From Nemertoderma westbladi (taxonomy: Eukaryota > Animalia > Xenacoelomorpha), in contig JAUCBJ010001945.1 in NCBI GenBank assembly GCA_032718475.1, positions 1-64,000 of the forward strand: a stretch of DNA of 64,000 nt. Direction: 5' to 3'. Shown piece after piece: positions 8,855 through 39,100 of the stretch; the stretch's first letter is position 1; each line of letters starts with the position of its first letter. A program made the translations under genes and the position numbers. The notes below the pieces were generated by a model that made no database searches, was not told the origin of the DNA, and saw only the letters and a program-made list of their open reading frames with translations.

Positions 8855-9934
8855 ATGAGTCAGTTAAGCGACAGTAATCGTGCGTTTCTTGAGTCCACGG
8901 CTAAGGCGATCGTGACCCCTGGTAAAGGAATTCTGGCGGCGGACGAGTCGACAGGAACAATGGGGAAGCGACTTGCGCCCACCGGCGCGGAGAACAACGA
9001 AGAGAACCGACGATTCTACCGACAACTACTTTTCACGACGCCCAATATGGAGAAGTTTATATCTGGGGTGATTCTCTTCGATGAGACCTTCTACCAGAGC
9101 ACCGATGATGGAGTTCGATTCATTCAGCTGCTGAAAAACAAGGGAGTTAAAATCGGCATAAAGGTGGATAAGGGATTAATCGATATCCCAGGAACGGACG
9201 GAGAACAGACGACTAAAGGACTGGACGATCTGGCTGTCCGATGCGCCAAGTACAAAGCGGAGGGAGCCGACTTCGCAAAGTGGCGATGCATCCTAAAGAT
9301 ATCGGATAAGTTGCCTAGCGACACGGCTATCGAGTCTATAACGGACGTGCTGGCGGAGTACGCGTCGATCTGCCAGGCGGAAGGTCTCGTCCCGATCGTC
9401 GAACCCGAGATCATGACGGACGGGGATCACGACCTCGCCAAGTGCGCCGACGTGACGCGGCGAGTTCTCTGTAAGCAGTACGCGCAGCTCGCCGCTCGGG
9501 GGGTCCTTCTCGAGGGTTCGTTGCTAAAACCCAACATGGTAACCCCGGGGAACGCGTGCGCCGATAAGTTCAGCGCCGACGCTGTTGCCAAGGAGACGGT
9601 GGACGCGTTGCTCGCCTCGGTTCCGGCCGCCGTTCCCGGAATCTGTTTCCTTTCCGGCGGCCAATCGGAAACCGACAGTTCGGTTCATCTGAACGCGATG
9701 AATTCCTCCGGGGTTCAGTTGCCGTGGCGACTGAGTTTCAGTTACGGACGAGCGTTGCAGGCGAGCGCGTTGCGTGCGTGGGCGGGCGTCGCAGCGAACA
9801 AGCAGCTGGCGCAGGACGAGTTCGTGAAGCGGGCCAAGATGAACGGGGACGCGACCCGAGGTAAGTACGACTCCAAGGAGGAGACCAACCCCGCCGCCCA
9901 GGTCTCCCAATTCGTGGTGAACTACACCTACTGA
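8855..9934 (+). CDS. ALDO: Fructose-bisphosphate aldolase, class I, paralog 2 (359 aa, intronless CDS)
   Basis: Motifs GKGILAADESTGT, KVDKG, FAKWR, PIVEPE, LLKPNMV, FLSGGQS, FSYGRALQ and C-terminal Tyr; colinear with paralog 1. Confidence 0.97.
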   Translation: MSQLSDSNRAFLESTAKAIVTPGKGILAADESTGTMGKRLAPTGAENNEENRRFYRQLLFTTPNMEKFISGVILFDETFYQSTDDGVRFIQLLKNKGVKIGIKVDKGLIDIPGTDGEQTTKGLDDLAVRCAKYKAEGADFAKWRCILKISDKLPSDTAIESITDVLAEYASICQAEGLVPIVEPEIMTDGDHDLAKCADVTRRVLCKQYAQLAARGVLLEGSLLKPNMVTPGNACADKFSADAVAKETVDALLASVPAAVPGICFLSGGQSETDSSVHLNAMNSSGVQLPWRLSFSYGRALQASALRAWAGVAANKQLAQDEFVKRAKMNGDATRGKYDSKEETNPAAQVSQFVVNYTY

Positions 9935-15037: not shown

Positions 15038-15139
15038 ATGGGTCTGGGTACGTCGAAAGATAAACGGCTCGATATCATAGCCAGCAGCCCCATTCCGGCT
15101 CGTTTCAACGGGTTCACGTGGCCTTTTCATATTGCCCAG
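15038..15139 (+). CDS. ZDHHC11: ZDHHC coding exon 1 (MGLGTSK...RFNGFTWPFHIAQ)
   Basis: Resembles the RxNGWSWPxHxxQ N-terminal motif of ZDHHC1/11; donor CAG|gtaagc. Confidence 0.9.
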
Positions 15140-18100
15140 GTAAGCGTGTGTTGTTTCTGCTATTTTCTGATGTTATTTCAATTTAGATTATGCCATAACT
15201 ATACAAGTTTCAATTACTTTGGTCGCGATGGCAACACTACACGGTGGGCGACACATTGCGGCCAATTTAATTTGTTTACTTTAAAAAATAATGAAACAAG
15301 ATATATTAGAAAGATTCGTATGAAACAAAAGTTTGAAATAAATTAATATCAAACAAAAGCCTTTATGTTAACTTTCAACTACAGACTGACGATAACCGAT
15401 AACGATAACTACAGACTGATATACGATAAGTGCCGTGCAGCGAGTGTAAACGCTATGCCGACAACCAAAGCCGTCAACCATTATAAGCGCTAATTAATGT
15501 TCATTACCAATTGAGGCAAAGTAACAGGTTATTTTGGTAGGCTATTCTAACCAAAACAATAAACGATAGTCAATTAATAGCAAAAGTTACATATCATGTT
15601 TGTTGTCATATCGAGCCCATGTGAAGGAGACCAGGTATTCACTTTTCGGTCGACTTTTAAGAATTTATATTTTTTAATTTCTCAATTTTAAGTGTCTTAA
15701 GGCGCCTACTTATGTCTTATAACCTGTACATATACTAATTCGTTTATAGTTTTGGTTTAATTCGGTTCTTCTGTATCCTGGGTTTTTAGAAAATACCTGG
15801 TATTCTTCACATGGGGGTAACTGCCAAGTGAAATACAACAGAAAGTCTGGTATACTTCACAAGGCAAACCCATCTTGGCGAATAAATATTTCGCCTCAAT
15901 GCTAAATTATCAATTTAGATAAATAAGCAGGTTACAATGGAGTGACACGTTATTCTAACCAAAACAATAAACGAATGTCAATAGAACAGGCTGATTATAT
16001 TTGGAAGTAATCACCTGTAATTTGCGTAGGTTTTCCCCTAAAGTGAATGATTTGCGTCGAAAGTCCCCTCCTATCTGGATGTTTTGAAGATTTACAATAT
16101 AGCTTAATTCGTTCCTCTGTTAATTTCAGATAATAATAAATAGTTATTTTTTGTTTTTATTTCAGCTTTATTATATTAAATCATGCTGTGTTGTATTGTT
16201 GTTGGCTGTTTTATGCTAATATTTTATTATTATTATAGATAACATGTTGGGTTGCTTGCTCGCTATTGGCTATATCTTACTTTGGGTTTATCGTTCCATG
16301 CGTTCCTTTACACTGGCGACCAGCCGGTTACACTGTATCCTTTGCTGTGTTGAGGTGACCCTGAAAGGCACAAAAGGGATTAGTATTAGTAGGGAGGGGC
16401 GAAAATCCCATCTCGGCGAATTAATACTTCGCCTCTATGCTAAATAATTATAAATTCAGGGAAGGAAGCAGGTTACAGTGGCACGTTATACTAACCAAAA
16501 CAATAAACTAAAAAAAATAGAACATCCCTCTCGCTCACATTCTGACCTCCCTGGTCTATTTGGTATGAGTGTAATAATAGTTCGACGCTCTTTCTTACTG
16601 CTGCGCTGGTCAGATCAGATTTTTCAATTTTCTATTTATTTAGCCGCAACAACCCATTAAAAAAAGGTATTATTCCGGTATTCATGTTTGATACCTTGTA
16701 CTTATCCTCATTTTTGATATTAGATTATAATTCAGATATCATTCCCTTTTTATCTGTAGATTCCGAGTACGAAAACCATTCCACAATAAAAAATTCCGGT
16801 TGCGGTTATACTGTAGTATAAATGTAATTAGGTTTATTGCGAGAATATTCAGATGTAATAATAATAATAATATATTTTGTACCGACTGGCGGTGCTTCAT
16901 CAGCTACAGTTATAAAGTTATCTAATTCCGTTATACTGTATTGGCAAAATTCAAAGGAATACAGTTTGGGACGTAAATAGATGTAATTCTAAGGGTTTTG
17001 TCTGTAATTCTATCTACATATATTCTAGAATATAATATCATTGCAACCATGGTGATAGGATTGTCAACAGATTCAAGTTTCTAATATTTTAATCGACTTT
17101 TATTTTCTTTTACTCACATACCAAATGATAATGTCATTGACTTTCGTCGACCTGACTTCTCGTCCGCCAAGCTGCTGCAAAGCCCCTAAATTTAGTGGGC
17201 CAGTTATTTCTCTTAGATAGAACCCCTGAAACAATACGTCTAGCGCATCGAAAGTACTTGTCCCTAACTAAAATTATATCCTCTTTCAGATGAGGCAAAT
17301 AAAAAGTTAATAGCTCCAGTAATTTTCGAGATATGAGGAGTTCCTGGCACGCCATACCATATCAAATCGGAATTGATAAAATTACACAAAATACATCACC
17401 CTTCAAATACTTAGGTATAACCATGAACGCATATAGTCTTACTTGAAATCCTCCGAAAGGGCCGATATGTCTTCGGGGATTCAGTCTTATGTCTCCGTGC
17501 CCGTGGCTGCCAGCCCGTGTAGAGAGAGGTGATAATAAATAGTCAAATAAACACAGCTAATCAGGCTGTCAGGTACCGTAATGTAATAATGATAATGCAT
17601 TGATGCCTATCACAGTTACAGCATAATGCAGTCAGCACTATCAGCAGTAATGTGATGCCTAACGCAGTAGTAGGCCTAGTGCAGTTGCAATGCAAATACC
17701 ACATACTGAATAATTCACTACATTACCATTACCAGAGTACTGCACTACTGAAATAGAAGTGCACTGGTTGGCCCTTAGAATTTTCGCCTGAAACATTGGC
17801 CATTTTTGAAAATATCACAATTTTATAAACCTTGTGCAGTGCAATGAAATCAGCACATTATAAAACCTCAGTAGCCAAACTATATGACGTCACCTGGTGG
17901 CCTGTAAGACGAAAATGACAAATGACACTTCCAGTATCCATCAGATAACAGACAGCAGAAGTGACACGACTGCACTACTCCTGCAACACAGAGAGTAGCC
18001 TACCGATGTAGGCATACTGGCAGTACGGTAACTACTGACTGGGAAAATTCATAAAGTTCTTAAGGGATTTGTTCCCAATCCTACAATAACAGACGACATT

Positions 18101-21100
18101 ACTCACCAGCGCCTACAACAATCCACCAGGTCACCGGGTCCGTCGTCCGTTCTCTATTATTCGTGGGTTACAACTCATATTTCCGTCACTCTATTCCGCC
18201 GTGGGGAGGGGCTTCAGTCGCAGTCAAGCGAGCAAGTCAAACGGCCAAATTATCACTTTTGGGTATTTGAAAATTTCGAGCTACTTGTAATTTTGGTGCT
18301 CTTTTAGTGTCTATTATAAAATAAACAATGAAGATTTTATTCTAATTTTGTAATATAACAACATGCCTATATTGTTATATTACACAACTCTTCGATATGT
18401 TTGATGTAGGTCGAGGAATAAACCTTCCCAATGAAATCAGCACATTCTAAAACCTCAGTAGCCAAACTGTACGGCCAATTTACCACGTTTGAAAAAAGTG
18501 CTACTTGCACTTTGGTGCTCTTTTACTATAAAAAAATGAAAATTTTGCTTCTAATCTTACTTTCGATTACTAATAATGAATTCAACAAGACAAAAAAGCA
18601 TAGTATGGTTTCATGGTTATACCAAAGTCTTGATGGGTGACGTATTTTGTGTAATTTTATCAATTCCGAAAGGTGTTGATATGGTATGGGTGCCAGGAAC
18701 TCCTCATATCTCGAAAACTAATGGAGTTATTAACTTTTTATTTGCCTCATCTGAAAGAGGATATAATTTTAGTTAGGAACAAGTACTTTCGACGCGCTAG
18801 ACCTATTGTTTCAGGGGTTCTATCTAAGAGAAATAACTGGCCAACTAAATTTAGGGGCTTTGCAGCAGCTTGGCGGGTCGTATCTATCGTAGGTCATGCG
18901 TTAATTTTCGTTTATTGTTTTGGTTCCCCCAACACTCCTCTGTATCCTGCTCCTTTACTAACCTGCTCCTTTAAATGGCAATGTCAGTTGCCTTTGTCAT
19001 TTATATATGAACATGAACAATACACATCCAAATTTGTATGTAAGAAATTTGTAAGGAAATATTGTTGAAATAGTTCTGAAATTAAGCTAGAGTGTGCCTC
19101 ATAAATTTGGCAGAATGCCGCCAGTAGAATGCTTTTATGTTGTTCGTATTTGTCACGCCTGAATGTTGAAACAATGTAACGAAGTTTCGTAGGCCTGCAT
19201 TTTCCCATTTTGAAGATTGAATACTAATTTACTAAGTATTACATGTTCCTTATATGTGCCTTGTATGTTTAGTAAAATTAAAAATGTACCAAAAGTAATC
19301 CAGTTATCTCCGAGATTTATTGCCTAAATTAAAATACTAAGTTATACTATTAAATGATGAGCACGGAAAAATATATCAAAGCAATATTCCTTAGTATAGT
19401 GTTTACGTACTTCGTTTACTCCAATAATATAATGCTCCCATCTCAGTCCGATGTGGTCTAGTGGTTAGGATTTCTGGCTTTCACCCAGACGGCCCGGGTT
19501 CAATTCCCGGCATCGGAAACTACTTTTTGCAATTCCCCAAACTTTTTAATTTTACCATTGTTTTTTTGTTAGTCACTTTTTTCTACTGTATAAATGTTTC
19601 TGATAATATTTCGAGTTTATATATTATTCGTCCCGTATTTAATTTATTATATAGGATATCTACATAATATATATTGATCACATTTTGTATGATCGTAACT
19701 AAGAAAGTGTATTTTTTAACATATGTTTTTGTTAAAGATGTGTTAATGTTAATGTTGACATTCTTATATTTCCTTAAGCCATACAATAACAATATAGGTG
19801 CCGGGCGTGCTTTTATTTTTTCATCTGATTGTTCATCTGGATGCCATGGCAACGGACCCCGCCAATAAGAATTTACGGAATCGTAACAGATCTATAAGTA
19901 GTTCCGTGTTCGACCGAAACAAACACCGACACGTTATAGAAGACAACTACTGCCATTTGTGCAAGATATTAGTGTAGGTGGTTTCCTAAACTTTACCGGA
20001 TATCAGTGTAGGTGGTTTCCTAAACTTTACCGGATATCAGTGTAGGTGGTTTCCTAAACTTTACCGGATATCAGTGTAGGTGGTTTCCTAAACTTTACTA
20101 TATCAGTGTAGGTGGTTTCCTAAACTTTACCGGATATCAGTGTAGGTGGTTTCCTAAACTTTACCGGATATCAGTGTAGGTGGTTTCCTAAACTTTACTG
20201 TATATCAGTGTAGGTGGTTTCCTAAACTTTACCGGATATCAGCGTAGGTGGTTTCCTAAACTTTACCGGATACCAGTGTAGGTGGTTTCCTAAACTTTAC
20301 CGGTTATCAGTGTAGGTGGTTTCCTAAACTTTACTGGATATCAGTGTAGGTGGTTTCCTAAACTTTACCGGTTATCAGTGTAGGTGGTTTCCTAAACTTT
20401 ACCGGATATCAGTGTAGGTGGTTTCCTAAACTTTACCGGATACCAGTGTAGGTGGTTTCCTAAACTTTACTGTATATCAGTGTAGGTGGTTTCCTAAACT
20501 TTACCGGATATCAGTGTAGGTGGTTTCCTAAACTTTACCGGATATCAGTGTAGGTGGTTTCCTAAACTTTACCGGAAATCAGTGCAGGTGGTTTCCTAAA
20601 CTTTACCGGATATCAGTGTAGGTGGTTTCCTAAACTTTACCGGTTATCAGTGTAGGTGGTTTCCTAAACTTTACCGGTTATCAGTGTAGGTGGTTTCCTA
20701 AACTTTACCGGATATCAGTGTAGGTGGTTTCCTAAACTTTACCGGATACCAGTGTAGGTGGTTTCCTAAACTTTACTGTATATCAGTGTAGGTGGTTTCC
20801 TAAACTTTACCGGATACCAGTGTAGGTGGTTTCCTAAACTTTACCGGTTATCAGTGTAGGTGGTTTCCTAAACTTTACCGGTTATCAGTGTAGGTGGTTT
20901 CCTAAAATTTACCGGATATCAGTGTAGGTGGTTTCCTAAACTTTACTGTATATCAGTGTAGGTGGTTTCCTAAACTTTACCGGATATCAGTGTAGGTGGT
21001 TTCCTAAACTTTACCGGATACCAGTGTAGGTGGTTTCCTAAACTTTACCGGATATCAGTGTAGGTGGTTTCCTAAACTTTACTGTATATCAGTGTAGGTG

Positions 21101-24100
21101 GTTTCCTAAACTTTACCGGATATCAGTGTAGGTGGTTTCCTAAACTTTACCGGATACCAGTGTAGGTGGTTTCCTAAACTTTACCGGTTATCAGTGTAGG
21201 TGGTTTCCTAAACTTTACCGGATATCAGTGTAGGTGGTTTCCTAAACTTTACTGGATATCAGTGCAGGTGGTTTCCTAAACTTTACCGGATATCAGTGTA
21301 GGTGGTTTCCTAAACTTTACCGGAAATCAGTGCAGGTGGTTTCCTAAACTTTACCGGATATCAGTGTAGGTGGTTTCCTAAACTTTACCGGATATCAGTG
21401 TAGGTGGTTTCCTAAACTTTACCGGATATCAGTGTAGGTGGTTTCCTAAACCTTACCGGATATCAGTGTAGGTGGTTTCCTAAACTTTACCGGTTATCAG
21501 TGTAGGTGGTTTCCTAAACTTTACCGGTTATCAGTGTAGGTGGTTTCCTAAACTTTACCGGATATCAGTGTAGGTGGTTTCCTAAACTTTACCGGATATC
21601 AGTGTAGGTGGTTTCCTAAACTTTACCGGTTATCAGTGTAGGTGGTTTCCTAAACTTTACCGGTTATCAGTGTAGGTGGTTTCCTAAACTTTACCGGATA
21701 TCAGTGTAGGTGGTTTCCTAAACTTTACCGGATATCAGTGTAGGTGGTTTCCTAAACTTTACCGGATACCAGTGTAGGTGGTTTCCTAAACTTTACCGGT
21801 TATCAGTGTAGGTGGTTTCCTAAACTTTACCGGATATCAGTGTAGGTGGTTTCCTAAACTTTACTGTATATCAGTGTAGGTGGTTTCCTAAACTTTACCG
21901 GATATCAGTGTAGGTGGTTTCCTAAACTTTACCGGATACCAGTGTAGGTGGTTTCCTAAACTTTACCGGTTATCAGTGTAGGTGGTTTCCTAAACTTTAC
22001 CGGTTATCAGTGTAGGTGGTTTCCTAAAATTTACCGGATATCAGTGTAGGTGGTTTCCTAAACTTTACCGGATACCAGTGTAGGTGGTTTCCTAAACCTT
22101 ACCGGATATCAGTGTAGGTGGTTTCCTAAACTTTACCGGATATCAGTGTAGGTGGTTTCCTAAACTTTACCGGATATCAGTGTAGGTGGTTTCCTAAACT
22201 TAACCGGATACCAGTGTAGGTGGTTTCCTAAACCTTACCGGATGATATCAGTGTAGGTTGTTTGAGGCAGTAGGTAGGTAGATTGTAGGCAGTTTGACGT
22301 ATATAACAAGAATTACTAAACTAAATCAAACAATCCCTTTACCAGTAAATTGTGTTTTATGGATTGTCTTCTGAATGGCGAATAATAATTGCAGTAACAA
22401 ATAATCGCACCTAAGTTAATAGGTCTGTCATTCGCCCCTCGCGACTTGCGGAGTAATAATATACGAATATTTATAAAAACAATGTTTTTGATACTTTGTT
22501 ATCCAATTAATGACCTGATTAATTTAATTTGTTTGCAGGGGACCTAAGACCAAACACTGTAGTCGGTGCAATAAGTGCATCGAAGTATTTGATCACCATT
22601 GCTACTGGCTTAACAACTGCATCGGAGTTCGGAATTACAACTCATTCCTTTGGTCTATTACTTCTGGGTTATACCTTGTTCTCCACATAGTTACCGTCGG
22701 AATGATTACCGTTGTCATGTACTTCGCAGACACATCCGCTCTGTACGGATGGAATACCGGCAGCCTTAACTATACTGTGGACATAGTCAGTACCACAGCT
22801 ATACCACCCGGTAATGGTAAGTCCGTAAGTTAGTACCACAGCTATACCACCCGGTAATGGTAAGTCCGTAAGTTAGTACCACAGCTATACCAGCCGGTAA
22901 TGGTAAGTCCGTAAGTTAGTACCGCAGCTATACCACCCGGTAATGGTAGTCGGTCACCCAACCTGTCAGTGACACAACTTTTATCTTCCCTTAGGTTACT
23001 GGCTACATCTATTCCAACCTGTCAGTGACACAACTTTTATCTTCCCTTAGGTTACTGGCTACATCTATTCCAACCTGGCAGTGACACAACTTTTATCTTC
23101 CCTTAGGTTACTGGCTACATCTATTCCAACCTGTCAATGACACAACTTTTATCTTCCCTTAGGTTACTGGTTACATCAATTCCAACATGTCAGTGACACA
23201 ACTTTTATCTTCCCTTAGGTTACTGGCTACATCTATTCCAACCTGTCAGTGACACAACTTTTATCTTCCCTTAGGTTACTGGCTACATCTATTCCAACCT
23301 GGCAGTGACACAACTTTTATCTTCCCTTAGGTTACTGGCTACATCTATTCCAACCTGGCAGTGACACAACTTTTATCTTCCCTTAGGTTACTGGCTACAT
23401 CTATTCCAACCTGTCAGTGACACAACTTTTATCTTCCCTTAGGTTACTGGCTACATCTATTCCAACCTGTCAGTGACACAACTTTTATCTTCCCTTAGGT
23501 TACTGGCTACATCTATTCCAACCTGGCAGTGACACAACTTTTATCTTCCCTTAGGTTACTGGCTACATCTATTCCAACCTGGCAGTGACACAACTTTTAT
23601 CTTCCCTTAGGTTACTGGCTACATCTATTCCAACCTGGCAGTGACACAACTTTTATCTTCCTTAGGTTACTGGCTACATCTATTCCAACCTGTCAGTGAC
23701 ACAACTTTTATCTTCCCTTAGGTTACTGGCTACATCTATTCCAACCAGTCAGTGACACAACTTTTATCTTCCCTTAGGTTACTGGCTACATCTATTCCAA
23801 CCTGTCAGTGACACAACTTTTATCTTCCCTTAGGTTACTGGCTACATCTATTCCAACCTGTCAGTGACACAGCTTTTATCTTCCCTTAGGTTACTGGCTA
23901 CATCTATTCCAACCTGTCAGTGACACAGCTTTTATCTTCCCCTAGGTTACTGGCTACATCTATTCCAACCTGTCAGTGACACAACTTTTATCTTCCCTTA
24001 GGTTACTGGCTACATCTATTCCAACCTGTCAGTGACACAGCTTTTATCTTCCCTTAGGTTACTGGCTACATCTATTCCAACCTGTCAGTGACACAGCTTT

Positions 24101-27100
24101 TATCTTCCCTTAGGTTACTGGCTACATCTATTCCAACCTGTCAGTGACACAGCTTTTATCTTCCCCTAGGTTACTGGCTACATCTATTCCAACCTGTCAG
24201 TGACACAACTTTTATCTTCCCTTAGATTACTGGCTACATCTATTCCAACCTGTCAGTGACACAGCTTTTATCTTCCCTTAGGTTACTGGCTACATCTATT
24301 CCAACCTGTCAGTGACACAACTTTTATCTTCTCTTAGGTTACTGGCTACATCTATTCCAACCTGTCAGTGACACAGCTTTTATCTTCCCTTAGGTTACTG
24401 GCTACATCTATTCCAACCTGTCAGTGACACAACTTTTATCTTCCCTTAGGTTACTGGCTACATCTATTCCAACCTGTCAGTGACACAGCTTTTATCTTCC
24501 CTTAGGTTATTGGCTACATCTATTCCAACCTGTCAGTGACACAACTTTTATCTTCCCTTAGGTTTCTGGCTACATGTCAGTGACACAACTTTTATCTTCC
24601 CTTAGGTTACTGCGGCTACATCTATTCCAACCTGTCAGTGACACAACTTTTATCTTCCCTTTGGTTACGGGCTACATCTATTCCAAACTGTCAGTGACAC
24701 AACTTTTATCTTCCCTTAGGTTACTGGCTACATCTATTCCAACATGTCAGTGACACAACTTTTATCTTCCCTTAGGTTACTGGCTACATCTATTCCAACC
24801 TGTCAGTGACACAACTTTTATCTTCCCTTAGGTTACTGGTTACATCGATTCCAACATGTCAGTGACACATCTTTTATCTTCCCTTAGGTTACTGGCTACA
24901 TCTATTCCAACCTGTCAGTGACACAACTTTTATCTTCCCTTAGGTTACTGGCTACATCTATTCCAACCTGTCAGTGACACAGCTTTTATCTTCCCTTAGG
25001 TTACTGGCTACATCTATTCCAACCTGTCAGTGACACAGATTTTATCTTCCCTTAGGTTACTGGCTACATCTATTCCAACCTGTCAGTCACACAGTCAACT
25101 TTTATCTTCCCTTAGGTTTCTGGCTACATCTATTCCAACATGTCAGTGACACAACTTTTATCTTCCCTTAGGTTATTGGCTACATCTATTCCAACCTGTC
25201 AGTGACACAACTTTTATCTTCCCTTAGGTTACTGGCTACATCTATTCCAACCTGTCAGTGACACAACTTTTATCTTCCCTTAGGTTACTGGCTACATCTA
25301 TTCCAACCTGTCAATGACACAACTTTTATCTTCCCTTAGGTTACTGGCTACATCTATTCCAACATGTCAGTGACACAACTTTTATCTTCCCTTAGGTTAC
25401 TGGCTACATCTATTCCAACCTGTCAGTGACACAACTTTTATCTTCCCTTAGGTTACTGGCTACATCTATTCCAACCTGTCAATGACACAACTTTTATCTT
25501 CCCTTAGGTTACTGGTTACATCGATTCCAACATGTCAGTGACACAACTTTTATCTTCCCTTAGGTTACTGGCTACATCTATTCCAACCTGTCAGTGACAC
25601 AACTTTTATCTTCCCTTAGGTTACTGGCTACATCTATTCCAACCTGTCAGTGACACAACTTTTATCTTCCCTTAGGTTACTGGCTACATCTATTCCAACC
25701 TGTCAGTGACACAACTTTTATCTTCCCTTAGGTTACTGGCTACATCTATTCCAACCTGTCAATGACACAACTTTTATCTTCCCCTAGGTTACTGGCTACA
25801 TCTATTCCAACCTGTCAGTGACACAACTTTTATCTTCCCCTAGGTTACTGGCTACATCTATTCCAACCTGTCAGTGACACAACTTTTATCTTCCCTTAGT
25901 TTACTGGCTACATCTATTCCAACCTGTCAGTGACACAACTTTTATCTTCCCTTAGATTACTGGCTACATCTATTCCAACCTGTCAATGACACAACTTTTA
26001 TCTTCCCCTAGGTTACTGGCTACATCTATTCCAACCTGTCAGTGACACAACTTTTATCTTCCCTTAGGTTACTGGCTACATCTATTCCAACCTGTCAGTG
26101 ACACAGCTTTTATCTTCCCCTAGGTTACTGGCTACATCTATTCCAACCTGTCAGTGACACAACTTTTATCTTCCCTTAGGTTACAGGCTACATCTATTCC
26201 AACCTGTCAGTGACACAACTTTTATCTTCCCTTAGGTTACTGGCTACATCTATTCCAACCTGTCAGTGACACAGCTTTTATCTTCCCCTAGGTTACTGGC
26301 TACATCTATTCCAACCTGTCAGTGACACAACTTTTATCTTCCCTTAGATTACTGGCTACATCTATTCCAACCTGTCAATGACACAACTTTTATCTTCCCT
26401 TAGGTTACTGGTTACATCAATTCCAACATGTCAGTGACACAACTTTTATCTTCCCTTAGGTTACTGGCTACATCTATTCCAACCTGTCAGTGACACAACT
26501 TTTATCTTCCCTTAGGTTACTGGCTACATCTATTCCAACCTGTCAATGACACAACTTTTATCTTCCCTTAGGTTACTGGTTACATCGATTCCAACATGTC
26601 AGTGACACAACTTTTATCTTCCCTTAGGTTACTGGTTACATCGATTCCAACATGTCAGTGACACAACTTTTATCTTCCCTTAGGTTACTGGCTACATCTA
26701 TTCCAACCTGTCAGTGACACAACTTTTATCTTCCCTTAGGTTACTGGCTACATCTATTCCAACCTGTCAGTGACACAACTTTTATCTTCCCTTAGGTTAC
26801 TGGTTACATCGATTCCAACATGTCAGTGACACAACTTTTATCTTCCCTTAGGTTACTGGTTACATCGATTCCAACATGTCAGTGACACAACTTTTATCTT
26901 CCCTTAGGTTACTGGCTACATCTATTCCAACCTGTCAGTGACACAACTTTTATCTTCCCTTAGGTTACTGGCTACATCTATTCCAACCTGTCAGTGACAC
27001 AACTTTTATCTTCCCTTAGGTTACTGGCTACATCTATTCCAACCTGTCAATGACACAACTTTTATCTTCCCTTAGGTTACTGGCTACATCGATTCCAACA

Positions 27101-30100
27101 TGTCAGTGACACAACTTTTATCTTCCCTTAGGTTACTGGCTACATCTATTCCAACCTGGCAGTGACACAACTTTTATCTTCCTTAGGTTACTGGCTACAT
27201 CTATTCCAACCTGTCAATGACACAACTTTTATCTTCCCTTAGGTTACTGGTTACATCGATTCCAACATGTCAGTGACACAACTTTTATCTTCCCTTAGGT
27301 TACTGGCTACATCTATTCCAACCTGTCAGTGACACAACTTTTATCTTCCCTTAGGTTACTGGCTACATCTATTCCAACCTGTCAATGACACAACTTTTAT
27401 CTTCCCTTAGGTTACTGGCTACATCTATTCCAACCTGTCAGTGACACAACTTTTATCTTCCCTTAGGTTACTGGCTACATCTATTCCAACCTGTCAGTGA
27501 CACAACTTTTATCTTCCCTTAGGTTACTGGCTACATCTATTCCAACCTGTCAATGACACAACTTTTATCTTCCCTTAGGTTACTGGTTACATCTATTCCA
27601 ACCTATCTGTGACACAACTTTTATCTTCCCTTAGGTTACTGGCTACATCTATTCCAACCTGTCAGTGACACAGCTTTTATCTTCCCTTAGGTTACTGGCT
27701 ACATCTATTCCAACCTGTCAATGACACAACTTTTATCTTCCCTTAGGTTACTGGCTACATTTATTCCAACCTGTCAGTGACACAACTTTTATCTTCCCTT
27801 AGGTTACTGGCTACATCGATTCCAACATGTCAGTGACACAACTTTTATCTTCCCTTAGGTTACTGGCTACATCTATTCCAACCTGGCAGTGACACAACTT
27901 TTATCTTCCCTTAGGTTACTGGCTACATCTATTCCAACCTGGCAGTGACACAACTTTTATCTTCCTTAGGTTACTGGCTACATCTATTCCAACCTGTCAG
28001 TGACACAACTTTTATCTTCCCTTAGGTTACTGGCTACATCTATTCCAACCTGTCAATGACACAACTTTTATCTTCCCTTAGGTTACTGGTTACATCGATT
28101 CCAACATGTCAGTGACACAACTTTTATCTTCCCTTAGGTTACTGGCTACATCTATTCCAACATGTCAGTGACACAACTTTTATCTTCCCTTAGGTTACTG
28201 GCTACATCTATTCCAACCTGGCAGTGACACAACTTTTATATTCCTTAGGTTACTGGCTACATCTATTCCAACCTGTCAGTGACACAACTTTTATCTTCCC
28301 TTAGGTTACTGGCTACATCTATTCCAACCTGTCAGTGACACAACTTTTATCTTCCCTTAGGTTACTGGCTACATCTATTCCAACCTGTCAGTGACACAAC
28401 TTTTATCTTCCCTTAGGTTACAGGCTACATCTATTCCAACCTGTCAGTGACACAGCTTTTATCTTCCCTTAGGTTACTGGCTACATCTATTCCAACCTGT
28501 CAGTGACACAGCTTTTATCTTCCCTTAGGTTACTGGCTACATCTATTCCAACCTGGCAGTGACACAACTTTTATCTTCCTTAGGTTACTGGCTACATCTA
28601 TTCCAACCTGTCAGTGACACAACTTTTATCTTCCCTTAGGTTACTGGCTACATCTATTCCAACCTGTCAGTGACACAACTTTTATCTTCCCTTAGGTTAC
28701 TGGCTACATCTATTCCAACCTGTCAGTGACACAACTTTTATCTTCCCTTAGGTTACTGGCTACATCTATTCCAACCTGTCAGTGACACAACTTTTATCTT
28801 CCCTTAGGTTACTGGCTACATCTATTCCAACCTGTCAGTGACACAACTTTTATCTTCCCTTAGGTTACTGGCTACATCTATTCCAACCTGTCAGTGACAC
28901 AACTTTTATCTTCCCTTGGGTTACTGGCTACATCTATTCCAACCTGTCAGTGACACAGCTTTTATCTTCCCTTAAGTTACTGGCTACATCTATTCCAACC
29001 TGTCAGTGACACAGCTTTTATCTCCCCTTAGGTTACTGGCTACATCTATTCCAACCTGTCAGTGACACAGCTTTTATCTTCCCTTAGGTTACTGGCTACA
29101 TCTATTCCAACCTGTCAGTGACACAGCTTTTATATCCCCTTAGGTTACTGGCTACATCTATTCCAACCTGTCAGTGACACAACTTTTATCTTCCCTTAGG
29201 TTACTGGCTACATCTATTCCAACCTGTCAGTGACACAGCTTTTATCTTCCCTTAGGTTACTGGCTACATCTATTCCAACCTGTCAGTGACACAACTTTTA
29301 TCTTCCCTTAGGTTACTGGCTACATCTATTCCAACCTGTCAGTGACACAACTTTTATCTTCCCTTAGGTTACTGGCTACATCTATTCCAACCTGTCAGTG
29401 ACACAGCTTTTATTGTTGTTATATTTCTAACGATTTTGGTATCTTTTATATCGGCTGCGGCTCTTTCCCATCTGATTATCTTCCACATGTACCTCAGTAA
29501 GTATTTAGTCTATGTAATAAGTTGTACTCATTGAATTTACATTATCGACTCATTGAGTTTACATTATCGACTCATTTAGTTTACATTATTGACTCATTTA
29601 TAGTATTTTCATTCACAGCTCTATATTATTATTGCACTTTCAGTGTATTACCAGATGACAACTTACGAGTTCTTCACCAGTCGACAGGCGTCACTGAAAC
29701 CTGCTACAGGCGCAGCTGGTAGTAGCCAATCACAGGGGTCTCTCCAAGATCAGCAGCGACCGCAAGTAAAGGATTACTCAGCGCGGTCCGAGGTAAGATA
29801 GTGCCCAGCTGCATCACGGCCCAAGGTCAGTTAGTTTCCAGCTGCATCGCAGTAAGTTAATGCCCAGCTGCACAGAGGTTCGAGGTCAGTTAGTGCCCAG
29901 CTGCATCGCGGTTCGAGTTACGTTAGGGCCCAGCTGCATCGCGGTTCGAGTAAAGTTATTGCCCAGCTGCATCGCGGTATGTTAGTACCCAGCTGCATCG
30001 CTGCCCGATGTAAGATAGTGACCAGCTACATCGGGTTCGAGTTAAGTTAGGGCCCAGCTGCATCGCGGTTCGAGTTACGTTAGTGCCCAGCTGCATCGCG

Positions 30101-33100
30101 GTCCGAGGTAAGTTATTGCCCAGCTGCATCGCGGTATGTTAATGTCCAGCTGCATCGCGGTTCGAGTTACGTTAGTGCCCAGCTGCATCGCGGTTCGATG
30201 TAAGTTAGTGCCAGCTGCATCACGCCAGCTGCACTGAGGTTCGAGGTAAGTTAGTACCCAGCTGCATCGCGGTTCGAGTTACGTTAGTGCCCAGCTGCAT
30301 CGCGGTTCGAGTTACGTTAGTGCCCAGCTCCATCGCGGCCCGAGGTTAGGTAGTTCCCAGCTGCATCGCAGTCATCTCTGCAAGCAGTCGTCTCACCTTA
30401 CCATGTGGGACGTGAAGCCCTCGAATAAACAATCAGTGGATTGGTTTACATACTGGTGAGCATCGGAAGTAACTACTTACCCATCCGTAATCGCATTGAT
30501 TGAGTCACAATGTTGTCTGTTTCTGAGTTTCCCTTTAATGGTGTTGAATGGGTGGACGTTTGCTTGTTTAAATATTTTAAAATTTAATTTTTATCTCCAC
30601 AGGACATGACAACGAATGCCCGAGACGGGAAACAATTTCACGACGAAGTTGACCAACCTCCGAAGGTAGAAGAACTAGACAGTGGTAGATTAGATTTGGA
30701 GTCTGTGACCTCCAGCATGAGGAGTCGTGTTGTAGGTGAGTGTCTGTTCTGTCGCAGCTGATGGATCCGGTAATCTACCTGCTTCTATCTACAGTGTAGT
30801 TCTGGATATATAAAGTATCCTGGGTCACGCTGAGATGACATAAACTGCACGCCGTGTGACCAGCCTTCACGTAGTTAAACTGCACGCCGTATGTGTCCAG
30901 CCTTGACGTAGTTAAACTGCACGCCGTATGTGTCCACCCTTGGTGTAGTTAAACTGCTCGCCGTATGTGTCCAGCCTTGGTGTAGTTAAACTGTACGCCG
31001 TATGTGTCCAGCCTTGGTGTAGTTAAACTGCACGCCGTGTGACCAGCCTTGACGTAGTTAAACTGCACGCCGAATGTGTCCACCCTTGGCGTAGTTAAAC
31101 TGCACACCGTCTGTGTCCGGCCTTGGTGTAGTGAAACTGCACGCCGTATGTGTCCAGCCTTGGCGTAGTTAAACTGCACGCCGTATGTGTCCAACCTTGG
31201 CGTAGTTAAACTGCACGCCGTATGTGTCCAGCCTTGACGTAGTTAAACTTCACGCCGTATGTGTCCAACCTTGGCGTAGTTAAACTGCACGCCGTATGTG
31301 TCCAGCCTTGGCGTAGTTAAACTGCACGCCGTATCTGCTATCCCCAACATTATTCAATTTGTATACCGGAAGCATTCACTCAGGACTTGAATCCACTGAA
31401 CACGGATGTTATGTGCACAATACATGGCTTGGGGTGATATGTTATGCCGACGACATCTTGGTCATTGGCACAGCCGCCTCGGAGGTAGAGTTTCTTGTCG
31501 GGCGGGTCGTATCGGGCCTAAACGAGATCACCCTTGACATTGAACAGACAAAAACTAAGTGGATCATCTGCCGAGGGAAAAAGTGTACGGACACTGCGAC
31601 ACCAACATTCCTTAACATAAATGGGACCCTAGTACCCGCAAAGCCATCATTAACATTCTTGGGTTTCAAATTCACATCTGCATCGAATAGACTGGCCGAC
31701 TGCATTCGAATAATCGCTTCAGCCGCCGACACATTTCATAGAAACAGTTGGACCGTTCGTTGGCTGCATACCGACATCCTTAGTCACTTATGGAAGGTAA
31801 TCGGCATCCCCAACATTTTATATAGCTTAAAGTTCCTTATTGGTTAGTTATCATCCAGCGACATAGCGCCTTAGATGTCTACTACAGAAAAATCCTTCGT
31901 GGCCTACTGTGTCTTGGGACGTACGTCAATAATCACACCATTCTCAGTATACTGCATTGCAAACCGATATCTACGGAAGCGTTCTTCTGCCTCAATTGGT
32001 ACAATAACCCGATGTACACGATGTCCAAATCCAACACTGCAATCCATCCTATGAATATCTTTGCAAACCCACTCTGATCCTCACTCCAGCTATGTTGGTC
32101 TCGGCAGCTCTTACAGTAAATGCAACAATTTGTATCCGATGCCGCACATCTCTTCTCTCCTCACCTTCCAGTATAATAAGGAAGCATTGTTGTCAAGGAT
32201 GAATTGTGGTTCGATGTCAACAAGCGATCGTATAAAAATGGATCTCATCACGAATTATTACAACCTCCAGAATAAATCATTCTCATCTAGGCACTCTCGC
32301 ATCCTTGAGTTCTTCAACGCGATATAGACACCGACCCTACTAAGCACTATCATATATAAGTATCATTATGTTCCTTGTGGTGCTGGGCACGCTGGTATTA
32401 CGGGATGTTTGTTTCCAACAACCCCCCCCCCCCCCCCCCCCCCCCCCCAACCCCACTCGTTAACATAATATAACTAGTACTGATACGATTGACTGACGTA
32501 TTGGATAATGTGCAATAGGATTATCGTGCGTATGTTAATCATATATTTCATGTGTGCTGCCCAACGTGTATATAGAATTCGGTTCCGCCTGATTTTATTT
32601 CTGCCTTATTTCACATTTTATTTCTATGTTGTTTTGTTGTTTATAATCATGACAAATAAATAATTTTAATATATGGCGCCACCGTGCGGCCGCAATACGT
32701 ATGAATGAATGAATGTATTTTTTTTTATTGACGTTTTTCTATGTTGTTTCACAGCTGTCCCATCTCCAGCCCCTGTTGCTCAATATGAATTATTTCACCA
32801 GAAAGAAGCCGCTGTAAATCAACCATCGCGAATAATATCGCATCCAATGAAGGCCAAATCAGAAACCTTCCCACCCACGCATACGGAAATGGATTACAGG
32901 TTTGGAGTTTTAAATTATTTTGTTAAAAAATCTGCGCAAAATATATTCAGGAGCTTCGTACCAATAATTATTAACGTGACGTAACACACCACATATTGTT
33001 TTCAGTATCACTGTAATAAAATGTTCCTCAACAATATAAATACGGCCGGAGGCGACCCGAAGGCTCCTCTTTCGATAGCTGCTACCCGAGCGTACCGTAG

Positions 33101-36100
33101 GGGTGGGCGCTACTCCTATCTGCTACCCGAGGGTGGGTAGGGGTGGGCGCTACTCCTATCTGCTACCCGAGGGTGGGTAGGGGTGGGCGCTACTCCTATC
33201 TTCTACCCGAGGGTGGGTAGGGGTGGGCGCTACTCCTATCTGCTACCCGAGGGTGGGTAGGGGTGGGCGCTACTCCTATCTGCTACCCGAGGGTGGGTAG
33301 GGGTGGGCGCTACTCCTATCTGCTACCCGAGGGTAGGGGTGGGCGTTACTCCTAGCTGCTACCCGAGGGTAAGGGTGGGCGCTACTCCTATCTGCTTACC
33401 GAAGGTAGGGGTGGGCGCTTCACCTATCTGCTACCCAGGGATAGGGGTGGGCGCTACTCCTATCTGCTACCCGAAGGTAGGGGTGGGCGCTACTCCTATC
33501 TGCTACCCGAGGGTAGGGGTGGGCGCTACTCCTAGCTGCTACCCGAGGGTAAGGGTGGGCGCTACTCCTATCTGCTAACCGAAGGTAGGGGTGGGCGCTT
33601 CACCTATCTGCTACCCAGGGATAGGGGTGGGCGCTACTCCTATCTGCTAACCGAGGGTATGGGTGTGCGGTACTCCTATCTGCTACCCAATGGTAGGGGT
33701 GGGCGCTACTCCTATCTGCTATGCTAACCAAAGGTTGGGGTGGGCGCTACTCCTATCTGCTAACCGAAGGTAGGGGTGGGCGCTACTCCTATATGCTACC
33801 CGAAGGTAGGGGTGGGCGCTACTCCTATCTGCTAACCGAGGGTAGGGGTTGGCGCTTCACCTATCTGCTACCCAAGGGTAGGGGTGGGCGCTACTCCTAT
33901 CTGCTACCCAAGGGTAGGGGTGGGCGCTACTCCTATCTGCTACCCGAGGGTAGGGGTGGGCGCTACTCCTATCTGCTACCCAAGGGTTGAGGTGGGCGCT
34001 ACTCCTATCTGCTACCCGAGGGTAGGGGTGGGCGCTACTCCTATCTGCTACCCGAGGGTAGGGGTGGGCGCTACTCCTATCTGCTAACCGAGGGTAGGGG
34101 TGGGCGCTTCACCTATCTACTACCCAAGGGTAGGGGTGGGCGCTACTCCTATCTGCTAACCGAGGGTATGGGTGTGCGCTACTCCTATCTGCTAGCCAAG
34201 GGTAGGGGTGGGCGCTACTCCTATCTGCTATGCTAACCAAAGGTTGGGGTGGGCGCTACTCCTATCTGCTACCCGAGGGTAGGGGTGGGCGCTACTCCTA
34301 TCTGCTAACCGAGGGTATGGGTGTGCGCTACTCCTATCTGCTACCCAAGGGTAGGGGTGGGCGCTACTCCTATCTGCTATGCTAACCAAAGGTTGGGGTG
34401 TGCGCTACTCCTATCTGCTAACCGAAGGTAGGGGTGGGCGCTACTCCTATATGCTACCCGAAGGTAGGTGTGGGCGCTACTCCTAGCTGCTAACCGAAGG
34501 TAGGGGTGGGCGCTACTCCTATATGCTACCCGAGGGTAGGGGTGGGCGCTACTCCTATATGCTACCCGAGGGTAGGGGTGGGCGCTACTCCTATCTGCTA
34601 CCCGAGGGTAGGGGTGGGCGCTACTCCTATATGCTACCCGAGGGTAGGGGTGGGCGCTACTCCTATATGCTTCCCGAGGGTAGGGGTGGGCGCTTCACCT
34701 ATCTGCTACCCAAGGATAGGGGTGGGCGCTAATCCTATCTGCTAACCGAAGGTAGGGGTGGGCGCTACTCCTATATGCTACCCGAAGGTAGGGGTGGGCG
34801 CTACTCCTATCTGCTAACCGATGGTAGGGGTGGGCTGGGCGCTTCACCTATCTGCTACCCAAGGGTAGGGGTGGGCGCTACTCCTATCTGCTACCCAAGG
34901 GTAGGGGTGGGCGCTACTCCTATCTGCTACCCAAGGGTAGGGGTGGGCGCTACTCCTATCTGCTACCCAAGGGTTGGGGTGGGCGCTACTCCTATATGTT
35001 ACCCGAAGGTAGGGGTGGGCGCTACTCCTATCTGCTAACCGAGGGTAGGGGTGGGCGCTTCACCTATCTGCTACCCAAGGGTAGGGGTGGGCGCTACACC
35101 TATCTGCTAACCGAGGGTATGGGTGTGCGCTACTCCTATCTGCTAGCCAAGGGTAGGGGTTGGCGCTACTCCTATCTGCTATGCTAACCAAAGGTTGGGG
35201 TGGGCGCTACTCCTATCTGCTACCCGATGGTAGGGATGGGCGCTACTCCTATCTGCTAACCGAGGGTATGGGTGTGCGCTACTCCTATCTGCTACCCGAA
35301 GGGTAGGGGTGGGCGCTACTCCTATCTGCTACTCCGAAGGTAGGGGTGGGCGCTACTCCTATCTGCTACCCGAAGGTAGGGGTGGGCGCTACTCCTATAT
35401 GCTACCCGAAGGTAGGGGTGGGCGCTACTCCTATCTGCTACCCGAAGGTAGGGGTGGGCGCTACTCCTATATGCTACCCGAGGGTAGGGGTGGGCGCTAC
35501 TCCTATATGCTACCCGAGGGTAGGGGTGGGCGCTACTCCTATCTGCTACCCGAGGGTAGGGGTGGGCGCTACTCCTATATGCTACCCGAGGGTAGGGGTG
35601 GGCGCTACTCCTATATGCTACCCGAGGGTAGGGGTGGGCGCTTCACCTATCTGCTACCCAAGGATAGGGGTGGGCGCTACTCCTATATGCTACCCGAGGG
35701 TAGGGGTGGGCGCTACTCCTATCTGCTACCCGAGGGTAGGGGTGGGCGCTACTCCTATATGCTACCCGAGGGTAGGGGTGGGCGCTACTCCTATATGCTA
35801 CCCGAGGGTAGGGGTGGGCGCTACTCCTATCTGCTACCCGAGGGTAGGGGTGGGCGCTACTCCTATATGCTACCCGAGGGTAGGGGTGGGCGCTACTCCT
35901 ATATGCTACCCGAGGGTAGGGGTGGGCGCTACTCCTATCTGCTACCCGAGGGTAGGGGTGGGCGCTACTCCTATATGCTACCCGAGGGTAGGGGTGGGCG
36001 CTACTCCTATCTGCTACCCGAGGGTAGGGGTGGGCGCTACTCCTATCTGCTACCCGAGGGTAGGGGTGGGCGCTACTCCTATATGCTACCCGAGGGTAGG

Positions 36101-39100
36101 GGTGGGCGCTACTCCTATATGCTTCCCGAGGGTAGGGGTGGGCGCTACTCCTATCTGCTACCCAAGGATAGGGGTGGGCGCTACTCCTATCTGCTAACCG
36201 AAGGTAGGGGTGGGCGCTACTCCTATATGCTACCCGAAGGTAGGGGTGGGCGCTACTCCTATCTGCTAACCGAGGGTAGGGGTGGGCTGGGCGCTACTCC
36301 TATCTGCTACCCAAGGGTAGGGGTGGGCGCTACTCCTATCTGCTACCCAAGGGTAGGGGTGGGCGCTACTCCTATCTGCTACCCAAGGGTAGGGGTGGGC
36401 GCTACTCCTATCTGCTACCCAAGGGTATGGGGTGGGCGCTACTCCTATATGCTACCCGAAGGTAGGGGTGGGCGCTACTCCTATCTGCTAACCGAGGGTA
36501 GGGGTGGGCGCTTCACCTATCTGCTACCCAAGGGTAGGGGTGGGCGCTACACCTATCTGCTAACCGAGGGTATGGGTGTGCGCTACTCCTATCTGCTAGC
36601 CAAGGGTAGGGGTTGGCGCTACTCCTATCTGCTATGCTAACCAAAGGTTGGGGTGGGCGCTACTCCTATCTGCTACCCGATGGTAGGGATGGGCGCTACT
36701 CCTATCTGCTAACCGAGGGTATGGGTGTGCGCTACTCCTATCTGCTAGCCAAGGGTAGGGGTGGGCGCTACTCCTATCTGCTATGCTAACCAAAGGTTGG
36801 GGTGGGCGCTACTCCTATCTGCTACCCGAGGGTAGGGGTGGGCGCTACTCCTATCTGCTAACCGAGGGTATGGGTGTGCGCTACTCCTATCTGCTACCCA
36901 AGGGTAGGGGTGGGCGCTACTCCTATCTGCTATGCTAACCAAAGGTTGGGGTGTGCGCTACTCCTATCTGCTAACCGAAGGTAGGGGTGGGCGCTACTCC
37001 TATATGCTACCCGAAGGTAGGGGTGGGCGCTACTCCTAGCTGCTAACCGAAGGTAGGGGTGGGCGCTACTCCTATATGCTACCCGAGGGTAGGGGTGGGC
37101 GCTACTCCTATATGCTACCCGAGGGTAGGGGTGGGCGCTACTCCTATCTGCTACCCGAGGGTAGGGGTGGGCGCTACTCCTATATGCTACCCGAGGGTAG
37201 GGGTGGGCGCTACTCCTATATGCTTCCCGAGGGTAGGGGTGGGCGCTTCACCTATCTGCTACCCAAGGATAGGGGTGGGCGCTAATCCTATCTGCTAACC
37301 GAAGGTAGGGGTGGGCGCTACTCCTATATGCTACCCGAAGGTAGGGGTGGGCGCTACTCCTATCTGCTAACCGAGGGTAGGGGTGGGCTGGGCGCTTCAC
37401 CTATCTGCTACCCAAGGGTAGGGGTGGGCGCTACTCCTATCTGCTACCCAAGGGTAGGGGTGGGCGCTACTCCTATCTGCTACCCAAGGGTAGGGGTGGG
37501 CGCTACTCCTATCTGCTACCCAAGGGTTGGGGTGGGCGCTACTCCTATATGTTACCCGAAGGTAGGGGTGGGCGCTACTCCTATCTGCTAACCGAGGGTA
37601 GGGGTGGGCGCTTCACCTATCTGCTACCCAAGGGTAGGGGTGGGCGCTACACCTATCTGCTAACCGAGGGTATGGGTGTGCGCTACTCCTATCTGCTAGC
37701 CAAGGGTAGGGGTTGGCGCTACTCCTATCTGCTATGCTAACCAAAGGTTGGGGTGGGCGCTACTCCTATCTGCTACCCGATGGTAGGGATGGGCGCTACT
37801 CCTATCTGCTAACCGAGGGTATGGGTGTGCGCTACTCCTATCTGCTACCCAAGGGTAGGGGTGTGCGCTACTCCTATCTGCTATGCTAACCAAAGGTTGG
37901 GGTGGGCGCTACTCCTATCTGCTAACCGAAGGTAGGGGTGGGCGCTACTCCTATATGCTACCCGAAGGTAGGGGTGGGCGCTACTCCTAGCTGCTAACCG
38001 AAGGTAGGGGTGGGCGCTACTCCTATATGCTACCCGAGGGTAGGGGTGGGCGCTACTCCTATATGCTACCCGAGGGTAGGGGTGGGCGCTACTCCTATCT
38101 GCTACCCGAGGGTAGGGGTGGGCGCTGCTCCTATATGCTACCCGAGGGTAGGGGTGGGCGCTACTCCTATATGCTACCCGAGGGTAGGGGTGGGCGCTAC
38201 TCCTATATGCTACCCGGAGGTAGGGGTGGGCGCTACTCCTATCTGCTAACCGAGGGTAGGGGTGGGCGCTTCACCTATCTGCTACCCAAGGGTAGGGGTG
38301 GGCGCTACTCCTATCTGCTACCCGAGGGTAGGGGTGGGCGTTACTCCTATCTGCTACACAAGGGTAGGGGTGGGCGCTACTCCTATCTGCTACCCGAGGG
38401 TAGGGGTGGGCGTTACTCCTATCTGCTACACAAGGGTAGGGGTGGGCGCTACTCCTATCTGCTACCCGAGGGTAGGGGTGGGCGCTACTCCTATCTGCTA
38501 CCCGAGGGTAGGGGTGGGCGCTACTCCTATATGCTACCCGGAGGTAGGGGTGGGCGCTACTCCTATATGCTACCCGGAGGTAGGGGTGGGCGCTACTCCT
38601 ATATGCTACCCGGAGGTAGGGGTGGGCGCTACTCCTATCTGCTAACCGAGGGTAGGGGTGGGCGCTTCACCTATCTGCTACCCAAGGGTAGGGGTGGGCG
38701 CTACTCCAATCTGCTACCCGGAGGTAGGGGTGGGCGCTACTCCTATCTGCTAACCGAGGGTAGGGGTGGGCGCTACTCCTATCTGCTACCCGAGGGTAGG
38801 GGTGGGCGCTACTCCTATATGCTATCCGGAGGTAGGGGTGGGCGCTACTCCTATCTGCTAACCGAGGGTAGGGGTGGGCGCTTCACCTATCTGCTACCCA
38901 AGGGTAGGGGTGGGCGCTACTCCTATCTGCTACCCGGAGGTAGGGGTGGGCGCTACTCCTATCTGCTAACCGAGGGTAGGGGTGGGCGCTTCACCTATCT
39001 GCTACCCAAGGGTATGGGTGGGCGCTACTCCTATCTGCTACCCGAAGGTAGGGGTGGGCGCTACTCCTATCTGCTACCCAAGGGTAGGGGTGGGCGCTAC

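Follow-up and report, generated by a model that had tools for sequence, protein, structure and literature searches.

Tandem copies of exon-intron boundaries in a ZDHHC1/11-like gene of Nemertoderma westbladi

Boundary minisatellites and the Nemertoderma gene

Minisatellites made of tandem copies of an intron-exon boundary have been described in lancelets under the name of mirages, in Adh3 and in the globin genes BflGb6 and BflGb9 (PMC3087553), and troponin C and PGBD5 are further hosts (PMC3902484). Mirages copy donors as well as acceptors in units of 10-160 bp, and splicing is normal (PMC3087553). In human F7, the 37-bp variable number tandem repeat of intron 7 starts with a unit which crosses the exon-intron boundary and is followed by identical pseudo-donors. 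In F7, LMNB2 and PDGF intron 4 the most upstream donor alone is used and stronger pseudo-sites lose; IFI6 (6-16) and CBS intron 13 leak to neighbouring pseudo-sites (PMC1557585). Dual-specific AG/GT sites are found in the tandem repeats of human UBC and VCX3A (PMC10809524). We analysed a stretch of 64,000 nt of Nemertoderma westbladi DNA (assembly GCA_032718475.1, contig JAUCBJ010001945.1, positions 1 to 64,000; hereafter the window), which contains a ZDHHC1/11-like palmitoyltransferase gene with four minisatellites of its own exon-intron edges. With a probability of roughly 0.6, we consider these arrays as neutral by-products of a repeat-prone genome, which are kept since the exon-side copy is the one that is spliced.

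An earlier inspection of this DNA, made without database searches (the sequence-only reading), had described the reading frame and the DHHC motifs as apparently intact. This is borne out by a frame open over 488 aa and by the match of exon 4 to the Pfam DHHC domain (PF01529, E 1.7e-20). By BLAST with the whole protein, 5 of the 7 top relatives examined (150 relatives had been retrieved via exon 4) are named ZDHHC1 or ZDHHC11, the two others being a 'palmitoyltransferase' and an unnamed protein with a palmitoyltransferase in its cluster; a word search with exon 4 as query against longer proteins gave no match. Judged by its domain and its closest named relatives, the predicted gene product is a DHHC palmitoyltransferase of the ZDHHC1/11 group. 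In the exon model (Table 1), introns 3 to 6 are based on RNA, and introns 1, 2, 7, 8 and 9 on frame and homology.

Arrays were located in the 64-kb window with Tandem Repeats Finder (TRF) and placed on the exon model, and the decoy splice sites were counted by a sliding scan. TRF recovers, at the places given by the sequence-only reading, four arrays at the donors of exons 3, 4 and 6 and at the acceptor of exon 5. Their units (34, 43, ~33 and 56 bp, respectively) are mutually unrelated, and none of their 16-mers occurs elsewhere within the window. The 34-bp unit consists of the 9 final nt of exon 3 and the 25 initial nt of intron 3. Among its 67 decoys, 64 have kept the GT and 63 match the real site fully at positions -3 to +6; position -4 is a C in 67/67 decoys and a T in exon 3. 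The 43-bp unit joins the 32 final nt of exon 4 to the 11 initial nt of intron 4, with GT present in the 3 decoys, 2 of which are identical to the real site. The 56-bp unit is composed of the 10 final nt of intron 4 and the 46 initial nt of exon 5, and the 7-nt stretch CTTTTAT at its edge is common to the pyrimidine tract and exon 5. AG is kept in 111 of the 114 acceptor decoys; an exact match to the real site was counted in 78 from -20 to +3 and in 20 from -56 to +38. The 56-mer units diverge by 1.8% from the commonest unit, and at unit position 39 a minority of the decoys share the G of the exon, among them 5 of the final 8. The unit of the degenerate exon 6 array comprises ~9-12 final nt of exon 6 and the beginning of intron 6. 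Many of its units are devoid of GT, and 6-10 decoys with GT were counted, depending on the threshold; two of these, with their GT at 30108 and at 30246, fit the U1 consensus in 8/9 positions, versus 7/9 for the real donor.

The arrays of exons 3, 4, 5 and 6 cover 9, 32, 46 and 9 exon bases, respectively, and together hold about 185 decoys with an intact GT or AG, in agreement with the 'roughly 200' estimated previously. Their homogeneity is uneven, with TRF matches of 95-96% for some and 74-86% for others, and since these percentages differ the arrays are probably of different ages.

The four arrays display every mirage feature examined. As in lancelets, the unit spans an exon-intron boundary, donors and acceptors are both affected, the unit has the size of a minisatellite (33-56 bp here, 10-160 bp there), regular splicing is retained and the edge unit stays outside homogenisation, clearly in the 34-mer and partially in the 56-mer (PMC3087553). 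Compared with the lancelet cases in that source, copies are more numerous (68 and 115 here, 3-6 in BflGb6), one intron consists here wholly of two converging mirages, and four unrelated mirages occupy introns 3-6 of one gene, a difference in density which may not be real with respect to Adh3. Genes of the F7 type differ by a single donor array per gene, of 5-25 copies, and no acceptor array is among the cases described in the available text of PMC1557585. The class is thus already known and carries the name of mirages, and the present gene is an unusually dense example whose distinctive part is intron 4; the 'distinct mode of intron expansion' proposed by the sequence-only reading is not supported, and the arrays of the gene, 16.2 kb in total, include 6.7 kb off junctions. 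Such junction arrays mislead gene prediction and short-read mapping.

Splice-site choice among the copies

Six sequencing runs of one organism, none of them on record as RNA, were available, and five were compared on the stretches 29256-29860 and 22160-23070. X1 is DNA from sample S1 and is a possible source of the window itself, X2 and X3 are DNA from sample S2 and belong to another study, and X4 comes from sample S3; X5 gave no cover on 29256-29860 and is uninformative. These are contig-level data, in which depth gives no copy number and rare forms are dropped. X4 is represented by a single contig of 1,342 nt (depth 110) which skips intron 5 at GT..AG. Since this contig passes over GT..AG introns and X4 shows no further cover of introns or arrays, the run was treated as RNA. 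The contig contains the junctions 19973^22539, 22816^29368 and 29792^30603, all three expected from the sequence-only reading, as well as 29496^29644. A loose end of X4 shows the exon 3 terminus, with the exon-only T at -4, joined to 22539. Exon 4, ending in the first 43-mer copy, is joined to the last 56-mer copy and continues into unique exon 5, and position 29792 of exon 6 is joined to exon 7. In this contig, the exon-side copy is used at 4/4 array junctions, and no branch was observed at any of them, rare forms being invisible in contigs.

The use of the upstream-most donor at exons 3, 4 and 6, in the last case despite decoys with an 8/9 match, is the behaviour described for F7 (PMC1557585). 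At the contig level, the mRNA takes the first of the donors and the last of the acceptors. Local sequence cannot decide, because 63 donor decoys equal the real donor at -3 to +6 and two exon 6 decoys are better U1 fits. A choice made across the exon, by exon definition or by proximity, is likely, given that 20 of the decoy acceptors do not differ from the real one between -56 and +38 and that only 178 nt separate the exon 4 donor from the first decoy acceptor. When 12 decoy choices were tried in silico, all 12 led to a premature stop, with a protein of 125, 222, 235 or 312 aa instead of 488, and nonsense-mediated decay could hide leaks. As decoy use gives an early stop, selection would therefore keep the arrays whose exon-side copy wins. 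The proposal of the sequence-only reading that the copies are tolerated because splicing picks the exon-proximal site is thus supported at the contig level. Such tolerance is not peculiar to this organism: F7, LMNB2, PDGF and the lancelet Adh3 and globin genes are reported to be alike in this respect (PMC1557585, PMC3087553).

The decoys could also be functional, either by tuning ZDHHC output via nonsense-mediated decay or by allowing intron 4 to be removed stepwise at AG/GT, and the retention of AG (111/114 acceptor decoys) and GT (64/67 exon 3 donor decoys), the presence of AG/GT within every 56-bp unit and the use of neighbouring pseudo-donors by human IFI6 (6-16) and CBS (PMC1557585) are compatible with such a role. 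However, at about 2% unit divergence drift alone predicts intact AG and GT, and GT is gone from many units of the older 33-mer array. The donor that would be regenerated in the 56-mer matches the U1 consensus at 5/9 positions, +3 and +5 being among the mismatches; the authentic donor of exon 3 also scores 5/9. The single RNA contig is unbranched at the four junctions and has no joint at the AG/GT of the 56-mer, intermediates being beyond what such a contig can show. AG/GT sites in tandem are shared with UBC and VCX3A, but there both ends of the intron fall in one repeat and the intron measures a whole number of units, whereas here the donor belongs to a separate array and use of the GT in the 56-mer was not seen in the one contig (PMC10809524). 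A function of the arrays therefore seems quite improbable to us.

Intron 4 and the DNA runs

Intron 4 measures 6,551 bp and all but 9 bp (22949-22957) lie within the 43- and 56-bp arrays. The leftmost 56-mer opens with exon 5 sequence, while a simple duplication would have kept the old intron interior; we therefore infer that a deletion fused the two arrays. By this deletion the old interior would have been lost, and the working branch point would now be provided by an exon copy. In the 45 nt closest to the intron 4 acceptor, the GTGAC predicted as branch point (Table 1) is the sole match to NTRAY, and the same motif scan gave no match at introns 5 and 8.

Intron 4 thus offers a natural experiment, with 111 AG decoys, 20 of them identical over 94 bases, and the last site still used; the amount of leak at this intron would bear on the extent to which position across the exon can by itself fix the choice of a 3' splice site. 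A bolder account, which we find doubtful as a whole, would have all the ancestral interior of intron 4 gone and a duplicated piece of coding sequence serving as its branch point, converging arrays of donors and acceptors capable of replacing an intron, exon edges acting as hot spots for minisatellite seeding in this animal, and an acceptor chosen among 115 by position alone. If true, it would constitute a route of intron turnover which preserves intron position while erasing sequence. In a literature search, with most subscription journals outside its coverage, no intron consisting entirely of junction copies was encountered.

The DNA runs bear on the possibility that long-read errors or mis-joins account for the arrays, or for the repeat-only intron 4. 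The 34-mer repeat is present and the 56-mer repeat is deep in X1, X2 and X3, i.e. in two samples and two studies, and in these runs the repeat units are tens to hundreds of times deeper than the unique flanks (a depth which is not a copy number). Joins between arrays and flanks are contained within single contigs (X1 records 2, 5 and 8; X2 records 10 and 15; X3 record 17), record 3 of X1 passes from 43-mer copy 1 into copy 2, and the start of the exon 6 array is present in X1 and X2. The units share patterned variants. In the unique flank 22208-22727, S2 differs from the window by 9-13 positions per about 520-550 bases, or about 2%, and its repeat units are the same; S2, which carries the arrays, and S3 (X4) have a common exon 4 variant at 22586. 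An artefact would be favoured by the fact that no DNA piece spans an entire array on the two stretches compared, so that the copy numbers are those of the assembly only, and by the join of the 43- and 56-bp arrays, bridged on one side by less than the 31 nt per side used as the bar for contigs and barely covered in X1. Altogether, the artefact appears very improbable.

Origin of the arrays and other features of the window

Under the neutral explanation, a slippage-type short duplication would have happened to include an exon edge, the shared 7-nt stretch possibly marking the unit edge at exon 5. The duplicated pair would then have expanded and homogenised as a minisatellite, with the exon copy held by selection. 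Chance seeding is favoured because the region is repeat-prone generally and 4 of the 8 arrays of the gene miss the junctions. Arrays represent 16,239 bp of the 24,829-bp coding span, of which 9,506 bp are junction arrays. In the whole window, 15 arrays with a unit of at least 17 bp total 21.3 kb of 64 kb; 11 are off junctions and 7 lie outside the gene. Repeat-driven intron growth here does not need a junction. The sequence-only reading had counted arrays at 4 of the 8 junctions of introns 3-6 and had omitted the four non-junction arrays of the gene; over all 9 introns the tally becomes 4 of 18 junctions and 4 of 8 arrays.

Exon edges might instead preferentially seed duplications, for instance where the polymerase pauses or where R-loops or the edges of nucleosomes coincide with splice sites, with selection deciding the side; a mutational process aimed at junctions had also been raised by the sequence-only reading. 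The number of straddling arrays was compared with a null model in which each array was collapsed to one unit and treated as a random surviving unit-length duplication, either intronic or straddling. For the 8 arrays, 4 straddlers are seen. The null drawn per host intron, which varies with the assumed ancestral length of intron 4 and with the overlap required, gives 0.8-2.7 expected (P 0.005-0.17), and its upper P values speak against preferential seeding. The three donors and one acceptor concerned are on consecutive exons and have four unrelated units, which would suit such seeding. On the other side, no junction is required for the 6-kb 36-mer, for three more arrays of the gene or for the 7 arrays in the rest of the window, and the mechanism of mirages is called unclear in the available text of PMC3087553. 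All these P values concern one gene, picked post hoc for its pattern, and for this reason an excess of arrays at exon edges is suggested and not established. Preferential seeding, though a serious candidate, is in our opinion rather unlikely. A literature search with the coverage given above found no study that tested genome-wide for arrays at junctions; if a genome-wide junction excess were true, the origin of mirages, left unclear in PMC3087553, would be settled.

Several points weigh against the neutral explanation. The null over nine introns predicts 0.3-0.5 straddlers of 8 (P 0.0001-0.0007) and that over introns 3-9 predicts 0.7-1.4 (P 0.002-0.03), i.e. 0.3-1.4 and P 0.0001-0.03 for the two together, against 4 seen. 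Weighting by G+C leaves the excess (P 0.001 and 0.006), and plain chance with survival is strained for this gene. Of the 15 scored arrays, 8 are crowded into introns 3-9, with none in introns 1 and 2 (4.6 kb). The join of the 43- and 56-bp arrays is bridged weakly, by record 21 of X3 (22871-22975) with 18-30 nt on its right side, and the depth of X1 at this place is just 1.6. Finally, the RNA support is one contig from sample S3 while the arrays were seen in the DNA of S1 and S2, and contigs drop rare forms, so that use of the exon-side copy applies to the dominant form.

The 11 non-junction arrays have a G+C content of 0.476 versus 0.364 for the background (P 0.0007). A G+C bias was considered as the cause of the junction excess and rejected, as the weighting barely shifts the expectation.

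Table 1. Positions of the gene, its exons, the tandem arrays and the intron 4 features in the window
Feature	Position	Strand	Description
Exon 3 donor array	19965-22263	+	34 bp x 67.6; 68 donor-equivalent sites
Exon 4 donor array	22785-22948	+	43 bp x 3.8
Exon 5 acceptor array	22958-29413	+	56 bp x 115.5; 115 acceptor-equivalent sites
Exon 6 donor array	29784-30370	+	degenerate, ~33 bp, about 17-18 units
Join of the two intron 4 arrays	22946..22957	+	9 nt outside arrays resemble a decayed donor copy
Predicted branch point, intron 4	29342..29346	+	GTGAC, A at -23, in copied exon 5 coding sequence
ZDHHC1/11-like palmitoyltransferase gene	15038..39866	+	10 coding exons, 9 introns, 488 aa; frame open throughout
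Exon 1	15038-15139	+	
Exon 2	16239-16334	+	
Exon 3	19798-19973	+	
Exon 4	22539-22816	+	
Exon 5	29368-29496	+	
Exon 6	29644-29792	+	
Exon 7	30603-30735	+	
Exon 8	32755-32899	+	
Exon 9	39349-39513	+	
Exon 10	39774-stop near 39866	+	
22-bp array, intron 5	29526-29598	+	TRF; no junction touched
37-bp array, intron 7	30841-31334	+	TRF; no junction touched
36-bp array, intron 8	33097-39141	+	x 166; about 200 bp from either junction
19-bp array, intron 9	39627-39747	+	TRF; no junction touched

Two of the arrays away from junctions deserve a comment. The 22-bp array has 3.3 copies in the window, but the depth of its contigs, once summed, reaches a maximum of 3,690 in X2 and of 368 in X1, with flanks at 13-25; the peak in X2 reflects either a much longer allele or a unit also present elsewhere in the genome. 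An acceptor-like site, near 33006, precedes the start of the 36-bp array by about 90 nt, and the translation of the array gives long open repeats of the GGRYSY type. A hypothetical cassette exon of this array, in the frame of exon 8, would run into an early stop. The 36-mer was considered as a fifth junction array and rejected, since exon 8 and exon 9 join in frame and restore a motif common to P0142.

Intron 2 (16335-19797) has the look of what we take to be a minor (U12)-type intron, with the donor GTATCCTTT and with TTTCCTTAAG ~20-30 nt upstream of the acceptor; no report of a U12-type intron in ZDHHC1 was found in a literature search. A tRNA-Glu(TTC) gene lies within this intron (19447-19518, +), on the same strand as its host gene.

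Upstream of the gene, two intronless aldolase paralogues are arranged in tandem (2545-3621 and 8855-9934, both +), the second with near-full-length database matches 54-62% identical across many animals. Downstream, the segment 42938-57728 is delimited by direct repeats which measure about 1,257 bp, differ at 1 position, have TG...CA ends and are flanked by a duplication of 5 bp. Open reading frames (ORFs) resembling gag and protease (family label by eye) are found between these repeats at 46460-50321; by these hallmarks, the segment is a young long terminal repeat retroelement. Decayed fragments resembling the reverse transcriptase of long interspersed nuclear elements were recognised by eye at 1-1000 and at 31390-32300, the latter in intron 7. 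An intronless ORF of 456 aa on the minus strand (61308-62678) is presumably Sam50/Omp85-like, judging from its appearance.

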